Source: Escherichia phage SRT8
Sequence record: MF996376
Direction: 5' to 3' (one strand)
DNA: 49,579 bases
Positions within the stretch are counted from its first letter, which is position 1, and every line of letters begins with the position of its first letter. Made by a program: the position numbers and the translations under genes. The notes under the pieces were generated by a model. That model worked only from the letters and a program-made list of their open reading frames with translations, searched no databases and was not told where the DNA came from. Positions 4,529 to 49,579 of this stretch are shown one piece after another.

Positions 4529-5599
4529 TTATAATGCGTGTTTGTACTGATACCTCACCCACTGAGGCGTTTCTAAATCGACTTCAGCCGCGCCGTTAGC
4601 ATATGAAGGCCATACGTCTGATTCTACGCACTCTTTGTATGTGTGAACTACGCTAACGTATTGTGTACGCCCGATTCGAAGCTGTTCCGGCGTCATACGA
4701 TAGCCCATCGGCAAGAATGGTTCCTTCTTCTCTTGAGCAAGGAGGCGGACAACAATCGGGATATTCGGATCTACTCCTTCGAATGCCCCAGCCTGAATTG
4801 CTCGCTTCAGTAAGTCATGCTGTAACGCCATTTTCAAATAGTAGCCGTGGTTAAATGCCAATCGCGGAAACTCCAACGGGTTAGCGCTTGTCGTAGTTTT
4901 GAAGTCGGTAATCACTAGCGCTTCAGGATGAATAACCGTTTCGTAAACCGGATCGCCTTCGTCGGAATAACCAGTCAGCACACGCGCTTCGACGTTCTCG
5001 CGTAAATCTAAGTGATCGAGTCGAACCTTAACCTTCACGCCGGAAATCGTTCCGAAGATTGAAACTTCGTGCATTGCTGTTTCACTGTTGATGCAAGCGT
5101 CATGTTCCGGGATTGATTCAAGAACTTTTCGCATTGTAACGCAAGCGTCGTATGCTTCGGCGTCTACTAACTGCTTGCCTTCTGCCCGCGCTTCGGCTTC
5201 CGCCACCATTTCGATCAGGTATTGAACGTTAAGCATTTCGCCACAATAAACCATCATTTTCAAAAGGTCGGGATACTGCTTCCCTGAAGTACCTTTCAGG
5301 CCGAATGATTTTAACTTAGCGGATAACCCGGCTTGCGACGTGATCAGATCCTTAAACTCGGACGGAGCCGGGCAACGTTTGTAAGTCGCTTCAAACAATT
5401 TTTTGCTTTCGAAGTTCGTGTGCGATTGTGTCCCGAACTCCAGCGCCTTAGTTGTCTGATTCTTCTTAAATCTCCAGTTAGCCGGGCAGGTATTGAAGAT
5501 ATCGGCAAGGCTTGAGCCGCTTACGTACTCCGCCGCCCAACCTTTCGGATCGTGGTATTCGTCGTTGTTAAGCTGTTTGTTGGTGAATACTTTAAACAT
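4529..5599 (-). CDS. PD-(D/E)XK family recombination exonuclease (YqaJ/lambda Exo-like)
   Basis: ITDFKTT motif of the PD-(D/E)XK nuclease core; gene order exonuclease-annealase-SSB; good RBS. Confidence 0.55.
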   Translation of the reverse strand: MFKVFTNKQLNNDEYHDPKGWAAEYVSGSSLADIFNTCPANWRFKKNQTTKALEFGTQSHTNFESKKLFEATYKRCPAPSEFKDLITSQAGLSAKLKSFGLKGTSGKQYPDLLKMMVYCGEMLNVQYLIEMVAEAEARAEGKQLVDAEAYDACVTMRKVLESIPEHDACINSETAMHEVSIFGTISGVKVKVRLDHLDLRENVEARVLTGYSDEGDPVYETVIHPEALVITDFKTTTSANPLEFPRLAFNHGYYLKMALQHDLLKRAIQAGAFEGVDPNIPIVVRLLAQEKKEPFLPMGYRMTPEQLRIGRTQYVSVVHTYKECVESDVWPSYANGAAEVDLETPQWVRYQYKHAL

Positions 5600-6147
5600 T
5601 CGTTTATCTCCTTCGTTGATGATGTGGTCATTATAGCCAGTAGGAACATTTAGTCAACAGTTACGCTGTAATTGTGCGTAATCATTCCTTAGAAAAAATA
5701 CGATTACACAAAATCTCTATGTAATTCAATACTATAAAGCGTGTAAAGTTGCATGTATAAGATGTAAGCTTGTAATCACTCTATAGAGAAATATCAACAT
5801 TCCCCATCGATAACGCATCATTCCATAGAGAATCACTATCAATTTGAACGCATCACAAAAAACACGATTACATCGCTTACATTGATTACATGATAATTAC
5901 ACATATAAAAAACCAATTTAAGATTATTATTATTATCTATATATTATAAGGAGTTAGCGCATATCCGGGCGCTCTATAGCTGCTCAAATTTTGCGCGGAT
6001 TCTGTAATCATTAAAATCGTAGACAAAAATTACACAGATTACACGTAATAGGATTACGGCGTGATTTTTCCGGATCGCACTTTTTGCCAACAATCACGAT
6101 CGCAAACGTGTATAATGCCGATAAGCAAACGAATGGAGGGTTATAGG
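5600..6147. other. AT-rich non-coding hub with short repeats (gattaca-like iterons, TTA x5 tract, tgtataagatgtaagc block)
   Basis: About 550 bp without a credible ORF; shares conserved blocks with the hub at 35990-36700. Confidence 0.6.
6075..6116 (+). promoter_or_regulatory. Palindromic element variant (atcgcactttttgccaa) followed 18 nt later by TATAAT; putative promoter cassette for the lipoprotein gene
   Basis: Same arrangement as the early-gene cassettes. Confidence 0.45.
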
Positions 6148-6375
6148 ATGAAGAAGAAATTTATTGTCGCGGCGATTGCGTTAGCTCTGATTGGTTGTGC
6201 TGATATGCCGAAAAGAACGTGTACCGCTATATACGAATCTAGATCTAACAAATACGAAGTGTATGTGTTCGGAACGAGGCTCAATGGAGGGGAGTTAATG
6301 TTACGCGCCGGATACCCGTTCTCATTTCATTATGTAAACGAAAGGCAATTCACCACTCACGACTGCAAACGATGA
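6148..6375 (+). CDS. Small outer-membrane lipoprotein, Cor-like superinfection-exclusion candidate
   Basis: Signal peptide with lipobox LIGC (MKKKFIVAAIALALIGCAD); 75 aa; own promoter; adjacent to tail genes. Confidence 0.55.
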   Translation: MKKKFIVAAIALALIGCADMPKRTCTAIYESRSNKYEVYVFGTRLNGGELMLRAGYPFSFHYVNERQFTTHDCKR

Positions 6376-7439: not shown

Positions 7440-10400
7440 TTACCATACGCCAGTAATTCTACCAATCTGGACGCGAAGAACGCCATTCTGATCTCTAACG
7501 CTGATCGTCTGGTTATCCTGCTTCATCGAACCCTCGCCCGGAGTTGAACCGAAGTTAAGGAACGTGCCGTCCTTCCCTAAGTGCCACCCCGACTGATTCC
7601 ATACATAGTTGTTTGATTGAATGTATCCACCAATCATGGCATTAGTGATGAATCCGTCCTTAATCACCGCGCTACTTAGTATTACCTGCCCGCCCTCAAC
7701 GATAAACGGGTATCTAATTTGATTATTAGCACCGTTATAGATCGCGAATCTGTCGGCCTCAAACAGAAGTTGCGATTTAACACCACCCACACCAGAAGCT
7801 ACAAGCGACATTGCGATTCCGGCGCTGTACTGCTGCCCGTTGTACGTCAATCCAAGCTTAACTCCATACATCGCGCCGACTGAATCAACGTTAGCCCACG
7901 AATCAAGTTTCTGATTCAATGCCGCTTCGTTGTTTCCGATCCTTGCGCTTAACGCCGTGTCCGCCGTGGTTCTCGCTTCCGTTTCGTTGGCGATTGCCTG
8001 TTGAACCTGCGTTAACTGCGCCTGAATATCGTCGCCTACAGCCGCGCGTAAATCTTCAATTTCCTGCGATAGCGCTTCCGTTTCCGTGGCGATAACCTGT
8101 CGAAGTTCGGTATTCTGCGCGTTAATCCTTCCGTCGAAATCCGCTTCCATCTGCGAAACTTGCGTTACGCGGGCTTCCGTTTCATTCGCGATAAGCTGTA
8201 ACGACTCTTTAATCTGCGCCGTGAATTTTCCGTTCTTCACTCGCTGAATTCGGACGTCTTTGTCGTTCGCTAACGCGTTTTCGATTGCCGATTCCGCCGT
8301 GTTCTGGATTCTTGCGATCGCGTCGGTTGCGTTCTCCTTCAGCCACTGATAGCCCGGCGAATTCTCAATATCAACCTTAATTTCTCCGATAATGCTTTCC
8401 ACATCAGTAGACGCCATCCCCGGTATTAAGTTAGTCCACGAAGACACGTTGCCGATTTTGTCGATGGCGCGAATTCTATAGAAAATCATCTTCCCGGCCT
8501 CAAGCGGAGTATGGAAATACTCATGTTGCGGATACGGGACTAACGTTAGCAACGATGCATTTTCTACGCTGTTGTTTGGCGATTGCTGCACCTCTATGTA
8601 AGCCGTGTCGCCGGAGTCTTCAGGCATACCCCATTTTAACCGGATGCCGAAAACAACGTCGTCGGATGCCGTAAAGTTAATTGGCGCTCCCGGCTCGCCT
8701 ACCTTGCCAGTTAACCCAACAGTTACAACCTCAGACCACACGGAAGCATTTTCCGAAGAAGAGATAGCGCGAACCCGGACGGAGTATTCACCCGCGTAAA
8801 TACCTTCGACGAATGTTTCGTTAGTTTGTGTGCGAGGAACGTTAATCCAGTTTCCGTTATTCTTGCGCCATTGCACCTCGTAAAATGCCGCGTAATCGAC
8901 CTTATCCCAGCTAATGACCATCGTTTCTACGCTCAAGCCCTGCACTACTCGCGAAAACGATTCGACCGCTACGTTTTTCGGTGATGGCAACTTATCAGGA
9001 TCTACGACACTTGTCGGCCTGTCGTCCACATTCACGCCGTAGTCGATCGCGTCGTATTTGTTCGGGTCATACTCAACAGCCGTGATGCTGAATACGAACT
9101 CTTCGTCGCCGTCGCCCTTCTTGATATCGGTCACAACGTATTGTTGCAATGCAACGTCGGTTCGGTCGATAGCAAAGATAGTGTTTGGCGCGACGTCAAA
9201 GCCGAACCCTACGTTTATTTCTATCGTCTTGCCGTCTGGTGACACTGAAGAAATAGTGCGCTTAACGGGCTTTCCATCCGGCTTATTTACGACAATAAAA
9301 TCACCAGCGCGGGCGTCAACACGAAACGCCGTAAAAATCTGCAACCCTGATACTTCCATGACTCGCCCGGAAAGGTTTAACGTAAGATTGCTTGACCAGA
9401 AATTATCTGCAATCGCCACGACGTCGCCGATTTGCGGGATCATACCTTCCAGCCCGGTAGCAAAGTTAACCGTCGTGCTGCGAAGGTTAGTTCGCAGAAT
9501 CCAGCGTCCGCGCCTGTTAGCCTCGCTGCGTCGCGTACATCCGATCGCTGTAATGCTTGTCGGGTTATTGCCGAAGCGTCGCGCCGCGTCAGTATCGAAT
9601 ACAGGTTCAACGTCCTGTTGATATAAGTTTTCATGATCATCAAACTGCACGTTGCAAGTCGTGTACATGCTCTTTTCGCTCGCGAACGAGTAAGAGAAGT
9701 TACCGCCGACTACGTTTTCGTTGGTGAAAATGTAAGACGGGTCGCGCGGCTTATCGATCACGACAGATAAACTTTCGCCATTCCAAAACGACATACCACG
9801 GAAGATTGAACAGATATCGCGAACCAGTTTAAACGCTTCAATCTGCGACTGAATAACCACATCGCAAAGGTAACGCGGTTCGGTTCCGCCTTTTCCGTCT
9901 GGAACCATCTGATCGCAATATTGCCCGGCTTCGTATAACGCCCACTTATCGACATTAATCCCTAACTCACGCTGATCTAACCCGTAACGTTGGTTCGTGA
10001 TGATATCGTAAAGAACCCATGCCGGGTTATTACTCCACGCCTTTTTGAACGTGCCGTCCCAGCTTCCGTTATAGTCGCGGGTAATCGGGTTATAGTTCGA
10101 CGGGACGTTAATCACCTTCCACTTTTTACGAAGCGAAATATTCGGGATCTGCGTCGGAAACATCTTCGAATCGAATTCCACGAATAACAGACCAGTCAGC
10201 GGATAACGGAATTTAGCGTCGATTACTTCCGCATAGCTTTTCAACTGGATTTCGTCGATCAGGTTAGAATCGTCGGAATCAGGAGTAACGCGCGACACTC
10301 TCACGATTACTTGACTGTTGAACGCCGGAAGATTGATTCGGCGGCTACGGTCATAACCCGACATTGTTTTACCGTCGATCACGTCGGTGAAGTATTCGGT

Positions 10401-10890: not shown

Positions 10891-10912
10891 TCGGTGTTTC
10901 CATTATACAGGC

Positions 10913-10936
10913 GAAAAAAAACCCGCGCAAGGCGGG
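10913..10936 (-). terminator. Intrinsic terminator after gene I (hairpin CCCGC-GCAAG-GCGGG plus T8 on the minus strand)
   Basis: Hairpin and T-run; almost the same hairpin recurs at 13052-13075. Confidence 0.6.
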
Positions 10937-10942
10937 CTAATT

Positions 10943-11545
10943 TTATGCCATATCTTCAGCGTAGGAACCTGCGGAGAAGGTCGCCCCGCCGACAGTTCGT
11001 TCGCCATACGGAAGCGGGATCGGATACCCCGCCGCCGTTGTGTTCACCGCCCCGCCGAAAGCATAGGACGGCTTGTTCTTGCTGGATTGCACTTCGAAAT
11101 TTTGCCCCCCAGCTTGCGGGCTAATCATCTGCATTACGCCACCCAAAACCATAGCGCCGCCCATCATAAATGCGGAGGAAGCAAGCGCCCCCATCGCCGC
11201 CAGCGACGCGCCAGCCGTAAAGAATGCCGCAACCATAATCGCCGCACCTAACACGATTTGAAACAGACCGCCCGACTTTGAACCAGTAGGGATCGGGAGG
11301 ATTCGAACTTCGTTAGCGCAAGCGAACTCTTTTTCGTTGTTGTGACTAATGTTCTTCCCGTCAACGAATACGGCGTACTTCATTCTGGAACCGACTTCGC
11401 TTTGCATGTAGTCTTTAAAGCCCTCCACCTGCGACGACAGCGCCCGAATTGCTTCCGGGTATGAATCAACAGCCAGATAGTGAAAGACGCCGAAACGACG
11501 CCCCAGCGAACCAGAAAGCTTTATTTTCTTCAATGATGTATTCAT
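10943..11545 (-). CDS. Tail assembly protein (lambda gpI-like)
   Basis: Position after K; ATG at 11545 overlaps the K stop as ATGA; hydrophobic C-terminal half. Confidence 0.7.
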   Translation of the reverse strand: MNTSLKKIKLSGSLGRRFGVFHYLAVDSYPEAIRALSSQVEGFKDYMQSEVGSRMKYAVFVDGKNISHNNEKEFACANEVRILPIPTGSKSGGLFQIVLGAAIMVAAFFTAGASLAAMGALASSAFMMGGAMVLGGVMQMISPQAGGQNFEVQSSKNKPSYAFGGAVNTTAAGYPIPLPYGERTVGGATFSAGSYAEDMA

Positions 11546-13008: not shown

Positions 13009-13051
13009 TTTATTTACTCCATTTGTGAATGTGCAACCATTCTACAGCCAT

Positions 13052-13075
13052 AAAAAAGCCCGCGCAAGGCGGGCT
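13052..13075 (-). terminator. Intrinsic terminator after gene M (GCCCGC-GCAAG-GCGGGC plus T6 on the minus strand)
   Basis: Hairpin and T-run; followed by a TAGAAT -10-like box before gene L. Confidence 0.6.
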
Positions 13076-13089
13076 ATTGTTAGATAGTG

Positions 13090-16825: not shown

Positions 16826-16847
16826 TGTTGATTCTCCTGATAGGTAA

Positions 16848-16870
16848 TAGCACGAATTGCTAAAACAGCG
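16848..16870 (-). promoter_or_regulatory. Palindromic element (aatagcacgaattgctaaaaca) just upstream of the G chaperone RBS
   Basis: Consensus match; follows the hairpin at 16906-16930. Confidence 0.45.
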
Positions 16871-27450: not shown

Positions 27451-27469
27451 TTTAGCATATTACAGGCAC

Positions 27470-27493
27470 AAAAAAACCCGCCGAAGCGGGTTA
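27470..27493 (-). terminator. Intrinsic terminator closing the leftward early operon (AACCCGC-TTCG-GCGGGTT plus T7)
   Basis: Hairpin nearly identical to the terminator at 1381-1401. Confidence 0.65.
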
Positions 27494-27510
27494 GTTTTCA
27501 ACCTGATTTT

Positions 27511-31243: not shown

Positions 31244-31266
31244 TCGCGGAAAGTCTTTAGCAAGTC
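31244..31266 (-). promoter_or_regulatory. Palindromic element cassette, variant B (TGcTATAGT in a hairpin loop)
   Basis: Read directly. Confidence 0.5.
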
Positions 31267-31273
31267 GTGCTAT

Positions 31274-31720
31274 TTACCAGTAGCTAATTTCTTCAATAAC
31301 GTAGCTGTCGAAGCTGGCTTGCGAAAAGTCGCTTTCGTAGTCGATGCGGAACGTTTCGATTAATTCGCTGATCGGGTAGCCAGATCTGAAGAAGTAGCCG
31401 TCTGCCATAGCCCGCGACCATTTCTTCGCGTCACGCTTGCACATACCGTAAGTGTTCACGGCCTCTTTGAAGAATGCGCGGTTCATCTTGCGGCGAATTG
31501 CGGTAACGTCCAGATAAGTAGCTGTACCGCCGTACACTTGATAATGATACCTGGACAGGCGCTTCATAATCAGATCCAGATCGCCCGGCTTGCAAATAAT
31601 CGCATCGGTGTGAAGGTAGGTTCGATACGGCTTGATTTCGGTTTCGTGACCGTAAAGACCGGTTTCCGCCATTTTGAGGCCGTCCGCTTCACCCTGAATG
31701 CACACGATCAGTTTGTTCAT
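31274..31720 (-). CDS. Hypothetical protein
   Basis: 148-aa ORF in the early operon. Confidence 0.45.
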   Translation of the reverse strand: MNKLIVCIQGEADGLKMAETGLYGHETEIKPYRTYLHTDAIICKPGDLDLIMKRLSRYHYQVYGGTATYLDVTAIRRKMNRAFFKEAVNTYGMCKRDAKKWSRAMADGYFFRSGYPISELIETFRIDYESDFSQASFDSYVIEEISYW

Positions 31721-35018: not shown

Positions 35019-35039
35019 GGGTTTTAGCAATTCGTGCTA
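35019..35039 (-). promoter_or_regulatory. Palindromic element cassette
   Basis: AAATAGCACGAATTGCTAAAA with the TAG stop of the upstream gene inside it. Confidence 0.55.
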
Positions 35040-35318
35040 TTTAATCCATTCGCCTTTAATAATAAAGTCAGTGAACGCGTCAACCTTAGCGCCGCCACCA
35101 CAATTAAGCGGGTAGCTCCCTGTCGCGTCGTAAAAGTCCGCCAGGCGTTCGGCTATCCAGTTCATGAAACGCGCGTTACGTGACGCTACAGTGCCTTCGT
35201 ATGCTTGCTTAAATCCAAGTGCGGTTACGAATGCGATAAAGCGTTTTTGATAACCGGGCATCGCTTGCACGTTGGCGGCGAAGGCGTGTTGAAATTCAGT
35301 GCGGGTAAAGTTGTTCAT
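35037..35318 (-). CDS. Hypothetical protein
   Basis: Start at the ATG behind the cassette leader. Confidence 0.4.
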   Translation of the reverse strand: MNNFTRTEFQHAFAANVQAMPGYQKRFIAFVTALGFKQAYEGTVASRNARFMNWIAERLADFYDATGSYPLNCGGGAKVDAFTDFIIKGEWIK

Positions 35319-35376: not shown

Positions 35377-35396
35377 TTTTTAGCAATTCGTGCTAT
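35377..35396 (-). promoter_or_regulatory. Palindromic element cassette
   Basis: ATAGCACGAATTGCTAAAA plus hairpin GCCCGGCAC/GGAGTCGGGC. Confidence 0.55.
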
Positions 35397-35986
35397 TCTG
35401 CGACTTCTTCGTTTTTACCTCTCAGGGCTTCGACGTGATTTCGAAATTCTTCTAGCAATTGCCTTGCCGTCGATAACTCTTCGTCGTCGTACTTCGTGAA
35501 GTCGGGAACCCACAACGCCAGCGCATTAAATCGAACCGTGTCGATATGCTCACCAGATTGAACAGAATCAGCCTGGACAACCGGAACCGCTTTCGCCTTA
35601 CGTGTGCGGGCGGGCTTCTCGATCGGTTCGTCAGACAGCGTGACCGACACTAAGATTTCGTCGTCTTCATCCCGGCTAAGTGAGATCGCACAATCAAAGC
35701 CAGCTTTCGCAACGTGGCGCTTGATAGTCGGCGCGATGTACGGCGATTTCATCTTCAGGCGCAACAGGCCGTTGTACTGATCCCGGAAGACTCGCGCGTC
35801 GTCGTCCAATTCGTCTTCAGTGCGGGTGACGCCGTGTTCCTCATACTGCAACCGGGCGGCTTCAATCAGCATTTGCAATTCGGTGAAGCTGAATTCCCGT
35901 TCGCCAGCCTGAATCTTCAGCGTGACGATGTGGCGAAGCATTGCGGCGATGTTCGGTTCATTTGCGGAAGGTAGTTTAGTTGACAT
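35393..35986 (-). CDS. First gene of the leftward early operon; acidic hypothetical protein
   Basis: 197 aa, Asp/Glu-rich; strong RBS directly next to the AT-rich hub. Confidence 0.5.
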   Translation of the reverse strand: MSTKLPSANEPNIAAMLRHIVTLKIQAGEREFSFTELQMLIEAARLQYEEHGVTRTEDELDDDARVFRDQYNGLLRLKMKSPYIAPTIKRHVAKAGFDCAISLSRDEDDEILVSVTLSDEPIEKPARTRKAKAVPVVQADSVQSGEHIDTVRFNALALWVPDFTKYDDEELSTARQLLEEFRNHVEALRGKNEEVAE

Positions 35987-36429
35987 GGTTGTTTCTCCTG
36001 ATTGGTTTATGCAGACTTAGACAAAGATTGCACGTTGTATAAGCGCGTAATAATATCTTATTTTTTTGCTTTAGACAACACAATCCAGTAGCGACGCGCG
36101 TCACAAGGCTGTAAACATGCTTGTATAAGATGTATAAGATGTAAGCCCCCATAGAGATATTTAAGCATATGCGCATAAAACACTGTATATATACACAGAA
36201 AATCGCAATATATCAAATTTCACCCTTACATATAATACAAGTTTGACACGCTCTATATACAACAGCGTTTCTACTATATAAAAGCTAATTTAAAACTTAT
36301 TATTATTATATATATCATATAGTTAGCGCTAAACAGGCAGCTCCATGGGGTTGCTCACTTTTGCACCAATTTGTCTAAGTGACAAATCTAGCAAATTTTA
36401 GACAAGGATTACAAGCGTAATTTAGACAC

Positions 36430-36449
36430 GTAGCACGAATTGCTAAAAG
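36430..36449 (+). promoter_or_regulatory. Orphan palindromic element cassette (motif plus hairpin with TATAAC) not followed by a gene
   Basis: gTAGCACGAATTGCTAAAAg then GGGGA...TCCCC hairpin; no ATG with RBS downstream. Confidence 0.45.
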
Positions 36450-36623
36450 TTGGAGGGGAAGACCGTTTCACTCTATAACCTCTCCCCATTTTAATGCTTC
36501 ACAAGCAACAATCATCGCGATTGCGAACAATCACGCAATAATCATAACTTGTCATTTGCAATCATGAGTAATCACTCATTATTCCAGTTATTCCAATCTG
36601 AAGGAATAATCGTATCGGATCAG

Positions 36624-36642
36624 GAATAGCACTTTTTGCAAC
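36624..36642 (+). promoter_or_regulatory. Palindromic element cassette for the first rightward early gene
   Basis: AATAGCACTTTTTGCAACA, then TGgTATAGT, then leader ATCGAAACGAAGGAGA. Confidence 0.55.
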
Positions 36643-36698
36643 ACATCTGGCGGGTAGAGTTGGTATAGTTACTTCATCGAAACGAAGGAGATACAGAA

Positions 36699-37129: not shown

Positions 37130-37314
37130 CAGTGAAGATCTTAAAGCGATTCACCAATAAAGGGCAGTGCAAGACACTTGCCGATACCGTAGAACGCAAG
37201 GTCGATTTCTATACTGACAACCTGTTTCGCTTTTGGGGCGATCCGTTTAGCAATCGCGATTTCCTTATTTGGGAAAAGCTGAAGCAATGGCGTAAAACGT
37301 TTTGCGGGTACTAA
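37126..37314 (+). CDS. Hypothetical protein
   Basis: ORF; translational coupling. Confidence 0.45.
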   Translation: MTVKILKRFTNKGQCKTLADTVERKVDFYTDNLFRFWGDPFSNRDFLIWEKLKQWRKTFCGY

Positions 37315-37335
37315 ATAGCACTTTTTGTTAAAACA
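37313..37335 (+). promoter_or_regulatory. Palindromic element cassette
   Basis: AAATAGCACTTTTTGTTAAAA then hairpin GGGGT...ACCCC. Confidence 0.5.
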
Positions 37336-38399: not shown

Positions 38400-38551
38400 T
38401 TCGATATTACAACCACGAAACGAAATCATGGTATGTAATCGTAGGTCAACATGTACGCCGCTTAATGAAAGATGGTAGTTGGATTATCTCAGATCGCTAT
38501 AGTGTCGCCGACGTTGCGCATTATCCATTTACCTGGCATCGCGTCAAATAG
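38396..38551 (+). CDS. Hypothetical small protein (51 aa)
   Basis: ATGA overlap; its TAG stop lies in the next palindromic element. Confidence 0.35.
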   Translation: MIRYYNHETKSWYVIVGQHVRRLMKDGSWIISDRYSVADVAHYPFTWHRVK

Positions 38552-38566
38552 CACAAATTGCTAAAA
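38546..38566 (+). promoter_or_regulatory. Palindromic element cassette
   Basis: AAATAGCACAAATTGCTAAAA, hairpin GGGGTA...TACCCC, TGtTATAGT, leader. Confidence 0.55.
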
Positions 38567-38620
38567 CAACGACGGGGTATCTTGTTATAGTTACCCCATC
38601 GAAACGAAGGAGAAATAACA

Positions 38621-41606: not shown

Positions 41607-41724
41607 ATTCAACACGGCGCTAATGTCTCTTCTGTTGTCTTCGATGCGGGCGTCCGGTGAAACGTGTCACAATCTGGCGGACGGCGACGGCGTTTGCATA
41701 TTGAGCGTGACGCGATACCAATAG
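41551..41724 (+). CDS. Hypothetical small protein overlapping the previous gene
   Basis: ATG with AAAGG RBS; overlap of about 55 nt. Confidence 0.3.
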   Translation: MLIDRSVEFCATHQLSEDEFNTALMSLLLSSMRASGETCHNLADGDGVCILSVTRYQ

Positions 41725-41740
41725 CACTTTTTGTTAAAAC
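41720..41740 (+). promoter_or_regulatory. Palindromic element cassette
   Basis: ATAGCACTTTTTGTTAAAA then hairpin TACCC...GGGTA. Confidence 0.5.
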
Positions 41741-43588: not shown

Positions 43589-43644
43589 TTGTCTATCTCC
43601 TTTGTTTTGATGGGGTAACTATAACTCGTTACCCCGCGTTTGTC

Positions 43645-43666
43645 TTTAGCTATTCGTGCTATTTAT
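43645..43666 (-). promoter_or_regulatory. Palindromic element cassette
   Basis: AAATAGCACGAATAGCTAAAG, hairpin GGGGTAAC/GTTACCCC, TATAGT, leader. Confidence 0.55.
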
Positions 43667-49507: not shown

Positions 49508-49579
49508 TGACGATGAAACGTATTGCAGAATCAACTGGTGAAATCGACCGTCGCCACATCAACGGGAATAATGGTACAC
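49508..49579 (+). CDS. 3'-truncated ORF starting MTMKRIAESTGEI, runs off the window edge
   Basis: ATG with GAGGAA RBS after promoter; only 24 codons visible. Confidence 0.3.

Follow-up and report, generated by a model that had tools for sequence, protein, structure and literature searches.

The sequence record MF996376 of Escherichia phage SRT8 (49,579 bp, the whole stretch analyzed here and called the window) contains two intergenic regions, hub 1 next to the recombination gene recE and hub 2 some 30 kb away, which are compared here with each other and with their counterparts in related phages. A gene for a Cro/YdaS-like helix-turn-helix (HTH) regulator of 149 aa, 75-85% identical to T1 ST23 and flanked by primase and SNF2-type helicase genes, is split across the ends of the window (49508-49579 joined to 1-378); the window is therefore the entire, circularly permuted genome of a T1-like siphovirus. 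It belongs to Sertoctavirus (Tunavirinae, Drexlerviridae), and an identical sequence is present in IMG/VR (UViG_2974594196_000001). The hub-1 region is 96% identical to that of Citrobacter phage IME-JL8 and 93% identical to that of Escherichia phage BrunoManser (Bas12), both members of Sertoctavirus. The main landmarks are the following:

437-1381: zinc-ribbon primase gene (314 aa)
4529-5599, minus strand: recE, followed in the leftward operon by erf and then ssb
5600-6147: hub 1, between recE and cor
6148-6375, plus strand: cor
35987-36698: hub 2, the main divergent region of the genome
39630-41195: MCM-like DUF3987 helicase gene, the last gene of the plus-strand operon to the right of hub 2

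To the left of hub 2 lie a long minus-strand series of small early genes, terminase and the structural genes. On the circular genome the hubs are separated by 30 kb one way and by 18.5 kb the other way, and both have a GC content of 33-36%. An earlier note on this sequence had placed hub 1 in a region free of open reading frames (ORFs) between the recombination module and cor, and this is what we found: its only ORFs are unconserved and at most 47 aa long. A search for transfer RNA genes found none.

The same note had proposed that hub 1 shares sequence blocks with the region near 36 kb. Smith-Waterman alignment of the two hubs scored 96 in the forward and 31 in the reverse orientation, as compared to a mean of 24.3 (standard deviation 2.8) and a maximum of 36 among 500 dinucleotide-preserving shuffles. 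Since shuffling loses the local AT-rich patch, z-scores obtained in this way are somewhat inflated; the exact non-repetitive blocks, their order and their spacing are independent of composition. Specifically, four exact strings occur twice in the whole genome, once in each hub and in the same order:

5754-5769 and 36131-36146: TGTATAAGATGTAAGC, a 16-mer
5924 and 36297: TTATTATTATTAT
5952 and 36321: AGTTAGCGC
6077 and 36629: GCACTTTTTGC

The first blocks are spaced by 170 bp in hub 1 and 166 bp in hub 2, and the following ones by 28 and 24 bp; apart from a single 183-bp insertion in hub 2, the spacing is nearly equal. The non-repetitive blocks, with exact matches of 16, 11 and 9 nt, are restricted to the two hubs and colinear. 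The local alignment is colinear over about 310 bp, and the global alignment of 5600-6058 with 35987-36437 has 299 identities in 406 aligned positions. When three phages were aligned at both hubs (six sequences), homology began at the ribosome-binding site of the leftward gene, ran to about 6058 (36437 in hub 2) and picked up again within the rightward gene's promoter. Apart from the 183-bp insertion, the whole of hub 2 thus has a diverged, direct-orientation paralogue in hub 1. The blocks listed in the earlier note are thus real, and its coordinates hold to within 1-2 nt (5754 in hub 1 instead of 5756), with the exception of the 16-mer in hub 2, which lies at 36131 and not at 36123. Of the six genome copies of ATAGAGA, which it also mentioned, hub 1 has those at 5783 and 5825 (plus strand) and 5714 (minus strand) and hub 2 the one at 36151. 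Chance similarity of AT-rich, low-complexity DNA would be in line with the low GC content of both hubs, and runs of TTA and TA do inflate scores relative to shuffles of whole regions. However, this explanation is refuted by an alignment score of 96 against a shuffle maximum of 36, by exact blocks that are unique to the hubs, colinear and matched in spacing, and by the recurrence of the paralogy in four other genera, with hub-1 repeats clustering at hub 2 in about twenty paired contigs (see below); we consider its probability negligible.

The shared module is built from short repeats (hereafter iterons) arranged around an AT-rich core. In hub 1 the following elements were mapped:

5630-5657, minus strand: proximal promoter of recE, TTGACT-16 nt-TATAAT, matching 11 of 12 consensus positions in a promoter scan
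5667-5726: left iteron group, TGTAATT (5667), CGTAATC (5677), GATTACA (5702) and TGTAATT (5720)
5754-5779, plus strand: tandem iteron block TGTATAAGA-TGTAAGCT-TGTAATCAC, which includes the shared 16-mer
5866-5901, plus strand: four direct iterons (GATTACA, GCTTACA, GATTACA, AATTACA) abutting the left side of the AT core
5890-5955: AT-rich core (TATAAAAAACCAATTTAAGATTATTATTATTATCTATATATTATAAGGAG), a candidate DNA-unwinding element
5956-6002: variable, GC-richer spacer with a hairpin AGCGC-N8-GCGCT and a conserved AAATTTTGCG at its end
6003-6058: right iteron group, TGTAATC (6003, inverted relative to the left group), TAGACA (6020), AATTACA (6028), the near-palindrome GATTACACGTAATA (6037-6050) and GATTACG (6052)
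6074-6116, plus strand: promoter region of cor, with a degenerate copy of a 21-nt repeat (GCACTTTTTGCC) and TATAAT at 6111-6116

The recE promoter is separate from the iterons and the AT core, is also present in the hub-1 sequences of T1 and IME347, and has the iterons at 5667-5683 just upstream of its -35 element (5652-5657). The tandem block has counterparts at an equal relative position in IME347, in hub 2 of T1 and in KLPN1. The spacer at 5956-6002 is the most variable stretch among orthologues, but ATTTTG is kept in all eight hubs compared. The promoter region of cor is paralogous to 36625-36669 in hub 2, for which the corresponding map is:

36017-36078: left edge, TTAGACA (36017 and 36071), TGTATAAG (36036) and CGTAATA (36046)
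36078-36050, minus strand: predicted leftward promoter, TTGTCT-17 nt-TATTAT
36122-36147, plus strand: tandem iteron block TGTATAAGA-TGTATAAGA-TGTAAGC, paralogous to 5754-5779, with the TGTATAAGA unit duplicated from 36122
36266-36325: AT-rich core
36372-36428: right iteron group, TGTCTAA (36372, the homologous position of TGTAATC at 6003) and TTAGACA (36398 and 36422)
36407-36422: near-palindrome GATTACAAGCGTAATT within the right iteron group
36438-36620: 183-bp insertion specific to hub 2, outside the shared module
36625-36669, plus strand: promoter of the rightward operon, with the 21-nt repeat AATAGCACTTTTTGCAACAC and an extended -10 element (TGgTATAGT, 36661-36669)

GATTACA-like iterons had been noticed in hub 1 before, and they proved to be strongly enriched there. 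Counting one-mismatch relatives, 15 sites in both orientations were found, eight of them direct (5702, 5866, 5875 as GCTTACA, 5884, 5895, 6028, 6037, and 6052) and seven inverted (5667, 5677, 5720, 5763, 5771, 6003, and 6044). Out of 15 genome copies of GATTACA/TGTAATC, six fall within the 548 bp of hub 1 (binomial probability 8e-9) and one within hub 2; likewise, hub 1 holds 10 of the 34 genome copies of ATTACA (3e-12). Hub 2 holds five of the seven genome copies of TTAGACA and hub 1 none, apart from one shorter TAGACA core. In homologous alignment columns, TGTAATC or GATTACA in hub 1 corresponds to TGTCTAA or TTAGACA in hub 2. A composite of TAGACAnnn(G)ATTACA and a subsequent CGTAAT is retained in both hubs (6020-6050 and 36399-36422). 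The innermost inverted pair of hub 1 (5895 and 6003) is 108 bp apart.

Nearest-neighbour calculation in windows of 40, 60, and 100 bp ranked the two cores (5890-5955 and 36266-36325) as the least stable duplex DNA of the genome, with z-scores of 4.5-5.0 as compared to 3.2-3.6 for the next-best site elsewhere. The core of hub 1 lies about 326 bp from the start of its leftward gene and that of hub 2 about 314 bp. Core sequence is kept in both hubs of T1, IME347, and KLPN1, following the cross-genus pattern TATATAAAAGnTAAAAT ... (TTA or TAA)3-4 ... TATATATnATAAGGAGTT.

The hub pair is conserved across Drexlerviridae, recurring in T1, IME347, KLPN1, Ec_L1, and uncultured relatives. Within single genomes, alignment of the region upstream of recE with the early/pac region scored 66 in T1 (z 13.6), 69 in IME347 (Badaguanvirus, z 19.8), and 84 in KLPN1 (Webervirus, z 26), while hub 1 of SRT8 against hub 1 of KLPN1 was at background (z 2.0). 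Scanning IMG/VR with a RecE alignment yielded 75 distinct recE-upstream regions. Without exception, the locus (roughly 6 kb) has its AT-richest 60-bp window in the region upstream of recE, centred at a median of 329 bp from the recE start (interquartile range 319-340 bp). In Webervirus (KLPN1; L009, 33653-34147) and Eclunavirus (Ec_L1; L065/L210) hub 1 directly follows the primase gene, upstream of recE, and cor is absent. Because hub 1 of Webervirus sits between primase and recE without cor, the module travels with the upstream side of recE and not with a divergent gene pair. Nor is the module simply the recE promoter, since recE has its own, separate proximal promoter in every lineage examined.

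On the other hand, the iterons themselves differ between lineages; the 7-mers over-represented in hub 1 are, by lineage:

Sertoctavirus: GATTACA
Tunavirus and Badaguanvirus: GTTACA (plus TGTCTAT)
TLS-like phages: AACAAAA / AAACAAA
One uncultured clade: GGGACAAA, 11 copies
Ec_L1 (Eclunavirus): GGAGGAT, 8 copies
L068, a 51.2-kb phage: GTTATAT, 6 copies
Webervirus: GTAAGAT, 10 copies

In the lineages other than that of SRT8 there are 6-11 iteron copies per hub. They form inverted sets flanking the AT core, for example GGGACAAATGGGACAA-[55 bp AT]-TTTGTCCCATATTTGTCCCA or GAAACAAAAGAAACAA-[AT]-TTTGTTTATTTTGTTT, and in four genera 105-118 bp separate the innermost inverted pair. At a distance of 130-200 bp there is a tandem cluster, and one or two copies are just upstream of the leftward proximal promoter. 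Perfect palindromic iterons stand beside direct ones in KLPN1 (GTAAGATnnATCTTAC, twice) and in L063 (TTTGTCCAAGGACAAA).

To pair the hubs, hub-1 loci were matched to helicase-anchored loci of the same contigs. In about twenty paired contigs, the iteron of hub 1 also clusters at hub 2 of its own genome, around the local AT maximum. In the pair L063/L252, nine of ten GGACAAA copies in 15.5 kb fall inside one 700-bp window, and the hub-2 map of this contig is almost superimposable on that of hub 1; a megablast search of the L063 hub against GenBank phages gave no matches. Likewise, hub 2 holds five of five iteron copies in L068/L245, three or four of three to five in eleven Webervirus contigs, and three of three in one Tunavirus contig. 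Ec_L1 has eight GGAGGAT copies per hub in the same layout, and the rest of its hub-2 locus (7 kb) and hub-1 locus (5 kb) is free of them; its tandem cluster is on one side of the core in hub 1 and on the other side in hub 2. From this switch we conclude that the module tolerates local rearrangement while the core and the inner iteron pair are fixed. The co-variation of iterons between hubs is our strongest result. Because the same iteron populates both hubs in most lineages, it implies a putative reader of the iterons that is encoded by the phage, shifts in specificity between lineages and acts at both hubs, i.e., a lineage-specific DNA-binding protein. SRT8 is the least tidy case, its hubs having partly diverged to GATTACA and TTAGACA.

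We tentatively interpret the hubs as paired, origin-like sites for the loading of an initiator, a reading to which we give somewhat less than an even chance, by analogy with oriL and oriR of Bacillus phage SPP1, a pair of distant origins to which the replisome organiser G38P binds. They are the best available candidates for the replication origins of the family; protein binding, the identity of the protein, melting, and origin activity are what we infer beyond the paralogy, iteron enrichment, family-wide architecture, hub co-variation, and minimal core stability, which were observed. Each hub would be a copy of an ancient cis-acting module, duplicated and about 450 bp long, in the order tandem iterons, about 100 bp, direct iterons, AT core, spacer of about 50 bp, and inverted plus palindromic iterons. 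A phage-encoded, lineage-specific and sequence-specific protein would occupy the iterons of both modules, probably as monomers or arrays at direct and tandem sites and as dimers at palindromic ones, and when bound on either flank could distort or melt the AT core. The melted core would then load the DUF3987 helicase and the zinc-ribbon primase, after which the host polymerase would take over. The genome would thereby possess two origins, or an origin and an auxiliary site, one by the pac region and early genes and the other upstream of recE-erf-ssb. A design for initiator loading is suggested because the iterons flank the most meltable DNA, evolve fast in a fixed layout and have palindromic variants near the promoter.

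This interpretation draws on several known systems. SPP1 is likewise a pac-type siphovirus of about 45-50 kb with two distant, non-identical modules in which short protein-binding boxes lie by an AT-rich region, and two distant loci with common boxes and an AT-rich region are indeed what SRT8 has. In SPP1 one phage protein recognises both copies. On the other hand, the box sequences are unrelated, and the copies of SRT8 are intergenic, about 320 bp upstream of a leftward operon, and candidate origins only. None of 17 proteins scanned with PHROGs and/or Pfam was annotated as a homologue of G38P, although no dedicated search for it was made. In satellite phage P4, the octamer TGTTCACC is present in ori and crr, 4.5 kb apart, and is bound by the alpha primase-helicase. 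Here too, two cis regions carry one short iteron in direct and inverted orientation, and the T1 iteron TGTTACAC resembles the P4 octamer; furthermore, the SRT8 primase has the zinc-binding domain of primase-helicases (PF08273), and the T1 record calls the T1 primase similar to alpha-type primases. However, the hubs of SRT8 are 18.5 or 30 kb apart and both have AT-rich cores, the SRT8 primase has 314 aa in which Pfam detects only zinc-ribbon domains, and the helicases are separate genes. With neither a helicase nor a DNA-binding domain detected in it by Pfam, the SRT8 primase is not a multidomain alpha protein of the P4 type. Iteron origins (pSC101, F, R6K, lambda ori, and the Staphylococcus aureus pathogenicity islands, SaPI) also place clusters of 7-9-bp iterons by an AT-rich unwinding element, and an iteron cluster with an adjacent low-stability AT region is found in SRT8. 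As in those systems, the iterons vary by lineage, direct repeats coexist with inverted half-site versions, and a poorly conserved gene, here that of a DUF7174 protein, abuts hub 2 where a rep gene would sit. The direct and palindromic versions of one half-site in KLPN1, L063, and SRT8 (6037-6050) correspond by analogy to the pattern of iteron-type initiators.

The same architecture may be explained by transcriptional control. In that reading, which is the main rival and somewhat less probable, the hubs are paralogous control regions like OL and OR of phage lambda, the iterons are operators or activator sites for an early regulator that switches recE-erf-ssb and cor at hub 1 and the divergent early genes at hub 2, and the AT core is an early promoter rich in UP elements. 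The likeness to OL/OR lies in two paralogous regulatory regions with common sites, one of which drives a recombination operon (exo-bet-gam in lambda and recE-erf-ssb here). Both hubs have promoters for flanking operons (near-consensus at 5630-5657 and predicted at 36050-36078), every lineage examined has one or two iterons directly upstream of its leftward proximal promoter, the distance from core to leftward gene is tightly conserved, palindromic sites of 14-16 bp suit dimeric HTH regulators, and the hub-specific repeats of SRT8 would permit separate regulation of each hub. In addition, promoter-like hexamers are predicted within the cores, the sequence of which is conserved beyond composition. 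However, most iterons lie off the -35 and -10 elements, spread over 450 bp symmetrically about the melt-prone core, and 8-11 copies per hub are many for a simple operator. Promoter-like matches inside the hubs are no more numerous than in shuffles (4 versus 3.3 expected and 3 versus 3.5), and only the proximal recE promoter is convincing. Hub 1 of Webervirus is not divergent but lies between the 3' end of primase and recE, so that a rightward core promoter would find no gene to transcribe, and the conserved regulator motif of the family is a different element, the 21-nt ATAGCAC repeat. The lambda operators are three 17-bp palindromes that overlap promoters, whereas SRT8 has 10-15 short sites over about 450 bp, mostly outside the -35/-10 elements; no overlap of the lambda type was found at hub 1, where the nearest iterons are upstream of the recE -35 and most sites are 100-450 bp off. 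SRT8 is also virulent, with no repressor known. Transcription-activated origins exist, and the origin and early-control readings are not exclusive.

Several observations weigh against the hubs being initiator-loading sites. The fixed distance to the leftward gene and the iterons by proximal promoters fit transcriptional control equally well. That the AT core is conserved in sequence and not just in composition points to a conserved factor, for example RNA polymerase, that recognises it; the cores contain predicted promoter-like hexamers, and another group annotated a predicted promoter in the core of phage Chapo. The two hubs of SRT8 prefer different repeats (GATTACA 6 versus 1; TTAGACA 0 versus 5), so that a single factor for both hubs is least clear in this phage, for which two factors or a composite site are possible. 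Similarity between the hubs could also be kept in part by gene conversion through the phage RecE/Erf and not by selection; gene conversion may contribute, yet it leaves the many dispersed copies of one short motif per hub unexplained. The host factors that had been put forward as leads were not supported at the level of consensus sites: the DnaA box TTATCCACA is absent from the whole genome, and none of the 11 genome matches to the perfect consensus WATCARNNNNTTR of integration host factor (IHF) falls in either hub. DnaA and IHF sites are typical of plasmid iteron origins and are not required at phage origins.

Our hunt for the iteron-binding protein, which covered a helicase alignment, the DUF7174 protein and a 137-aa protein encoded upstream of the helicase, found no binder. 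The DUF3987 helicase is conserved throughout, and its last approximately 75 residues are moderately variable, not strikingly above the core of the protein. The DUF7174 gene (35393-35986, minus strand) adjoins hub 2 on the left and is syntenic in most lineages of Drexlerviridae, with protein identities of only 10-28% between lineages, and such poor conservation is what a co-evolving binder might show. Its AlphaFold model is of good confidence (pLDDT, the predicted local distance difference test, of 80), has a helix-helix-beta-hairpin unit at residues 72-118 and returned no significant structural match, and PDB sequence searches with this protein and the 137-aa protein gave no matches.

A further reading treats the two hubs not as independent origins but as one bipartite control system, in which a fast-evolving phage initiator would bridge, by looping or handcuffing of the kind known from ori and crr of P4, the 18.5 kb between the iteron sets on a circular or concatemeric genome. 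In this way replication firing would be coupled both to the pac/early hub and to the recombination operon, and the split between GATTACA-type and TAGACA-type repeats in Tunavirinae would represent two cooperating specificities. We consider it unlikely; if true, the phage T1 family would have its first defined replication-control circuit.

The 183-bp insertion of hub 2 (36438-36620) has to be considered apart from the shared module. It contains one copy of a 21-nt repeat (36426-36449, see below), five AATCA[CT] repeats (36510-36575) and a TTATTCC (twice)/GGAATAA inverted repeat; the latter two elements (36510-36620) are conserved from Escherichia to Klebsiella phages. The insertion is the sole part of either hub with detectable DNA-level conservation across many genera. 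Its RNA or DNA structure z-scores of -2.9 to -3.3 are the only notable folding signal in either hub. The GenBank records of T1 and KLPN1 both begin, by their deposited termini, at AAC|AATCA inside the homologous array, and the T1 record annotates a 2.8-kb terminal repeat from position 1. The pac site of T1-type phages has been located in the intergenic region of hub 2 (PMC7718038). Because of these record starts and this location, the insertion is probably the pac-proximal or terminase recognition region, and the shared module is read as something else. That the whole module is a packaging signal, with iterons as sites for the small terminase, hub 2 as pac and hub 1 as a second or vestigial pac, appears improbable to us. 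Its attractions are the mapped position of pac, the annotated T1 terminal repeat and the example of phage P1, in which the iterons of pac flank a central cleavage region. Against it, the deposited termini of T1 and KLPN1 lie in the AATCA array, the very part of hub 2 that hub 1 lacks, and the small terminase is well conserved (74% identity to T1 and 59% to KLPN1) while the iterons are fully turned over. Physical mapping of T1 reportedly gave a single pac site.

We also asked what the hubs might encode. Small non-coding RNAs transcribed from the promoter-like, AT-rich cores would agree with the scarcity of ORFs and with the conserved sequence downstream of promoter-like hexamers (AGTTAGCGC, TTGCTCA). 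However, when both hubs were scanned against Rfam with a permissive threshold, the best E-value was 0.15, which is at chance level, sliding RNA-fold z-scores across the shared module ranged from +1.2 to -2.2 on either strand and were not clearly distinct from shuffles, and no terminator was found in the shared module. Furthermore, the stretch right after the core is the most variable in orthologues, with no compensatory change seen. These results leave this explanation very improbable.

Both hubs also contain copies of a longer repeat. A 21-nt intergenic repeat, aaATAGCACnnnTTGnTAAAA, has been described for TLS, T1, and Rtp with no function assigned (PMC11447400), and it is the sole repeat element previously described in the family. 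Unlike the iterons, which are confined to the hubs and specific to lineages, it is conserved in the family and dispersed in more than 20 copies, one per operon. Copies inside the hubs are at 36426-36449 and 36625-36645, with a degenerate one at 6074-6094. In SRT8 it takes the form AATAGCAC-N3-5-TTGCTAAAAC at more than 20 intergenic sites, upstream of nearly every operon and with the orientation of transcription (e.g., 16846-16866, 31253-31276, 35020-35043, 36625-36645, 37314-37334, 38547-38567, 41720-41740, and 43642-43665). It has a core palindrome TAGCA-N5-TGCTA and lies about 20 nt before a -10 element of TATAGT type that is often preceded by TG, which puts the repeat near position -43, as in class II activator sites. 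The Cro-like HTH regulator at the window ends would be the natural candidate for binding this repeat, and, being conserved, it seems to fit the conserved ATAGCAC repeat better than the lineage-specific iterons.

Genome papers on T1-like phages reported no identifiable origin (PMC11447400, PMC7718038). The searchable literature held no map of transcription start sites, no origin map, and no description of iterons for the T1-like family, and its sole mention of iterons was that none were found in TLS. The paired module is an element of a familiar kind, while an origin or iterons of T1-like phages would be new to the searchable literature. It provides two precise coordinates per genome together with a lineage-specific motif. 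If the hubs are origins, they would explain where replication starts in a phage with only a primase and helicases, and would supply engineering with a portable cis element; as regulatory hubs, they would define the missing circuit of early-gene control. Whichever holds, the co-variation of hub iterons offers a clean natural experiment through which to search for the binding protein. T1 itself belongs to the original seven T phages, and its relatives, the Drexlerviridae, are among the phages of Escherichia coli and Klebsiella met most often in therapy collections and in fermentation contamination.

Three further observations concern the genome at large. A near-consensus LexA (SOS) box, CTGTATATATACACAG, was noted at 36183-36198, on the left side of the hub-2 AT core and 113 bp from its centre. 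No other CTGT-N8-ACAG exists in the genome (about 0.8 expected from the pattern alone); the box is retained in IME-JL8 and has one mismatch in BrunoManser and in T1. A strict SOS box occurs in one of 45 hub-2 and in none of 75 hub-1 sequences, by which LexA control was rejected as a feature of the family, and the box is lineage-limited and possibly fortuitous. In-frame tandem repeats are present in the genes for the lateral tail fibre (21-nt units, three times) and the J-like tail tip (99-nt units, three times), at 1982-2056 and 7974-8225. Lastly, near-identical terminator-like hairpins (AAAAAACCCGC..GCGGGCT) follow structural operons at 10900-10945, 13037-13082, and 27455-27500, and this family, which includes a perfect 24-nt inverted pair 26 kb apart (1378-1401 versus 27471-27494), looks like a set of reused rho-independent or bidirectional terminators.

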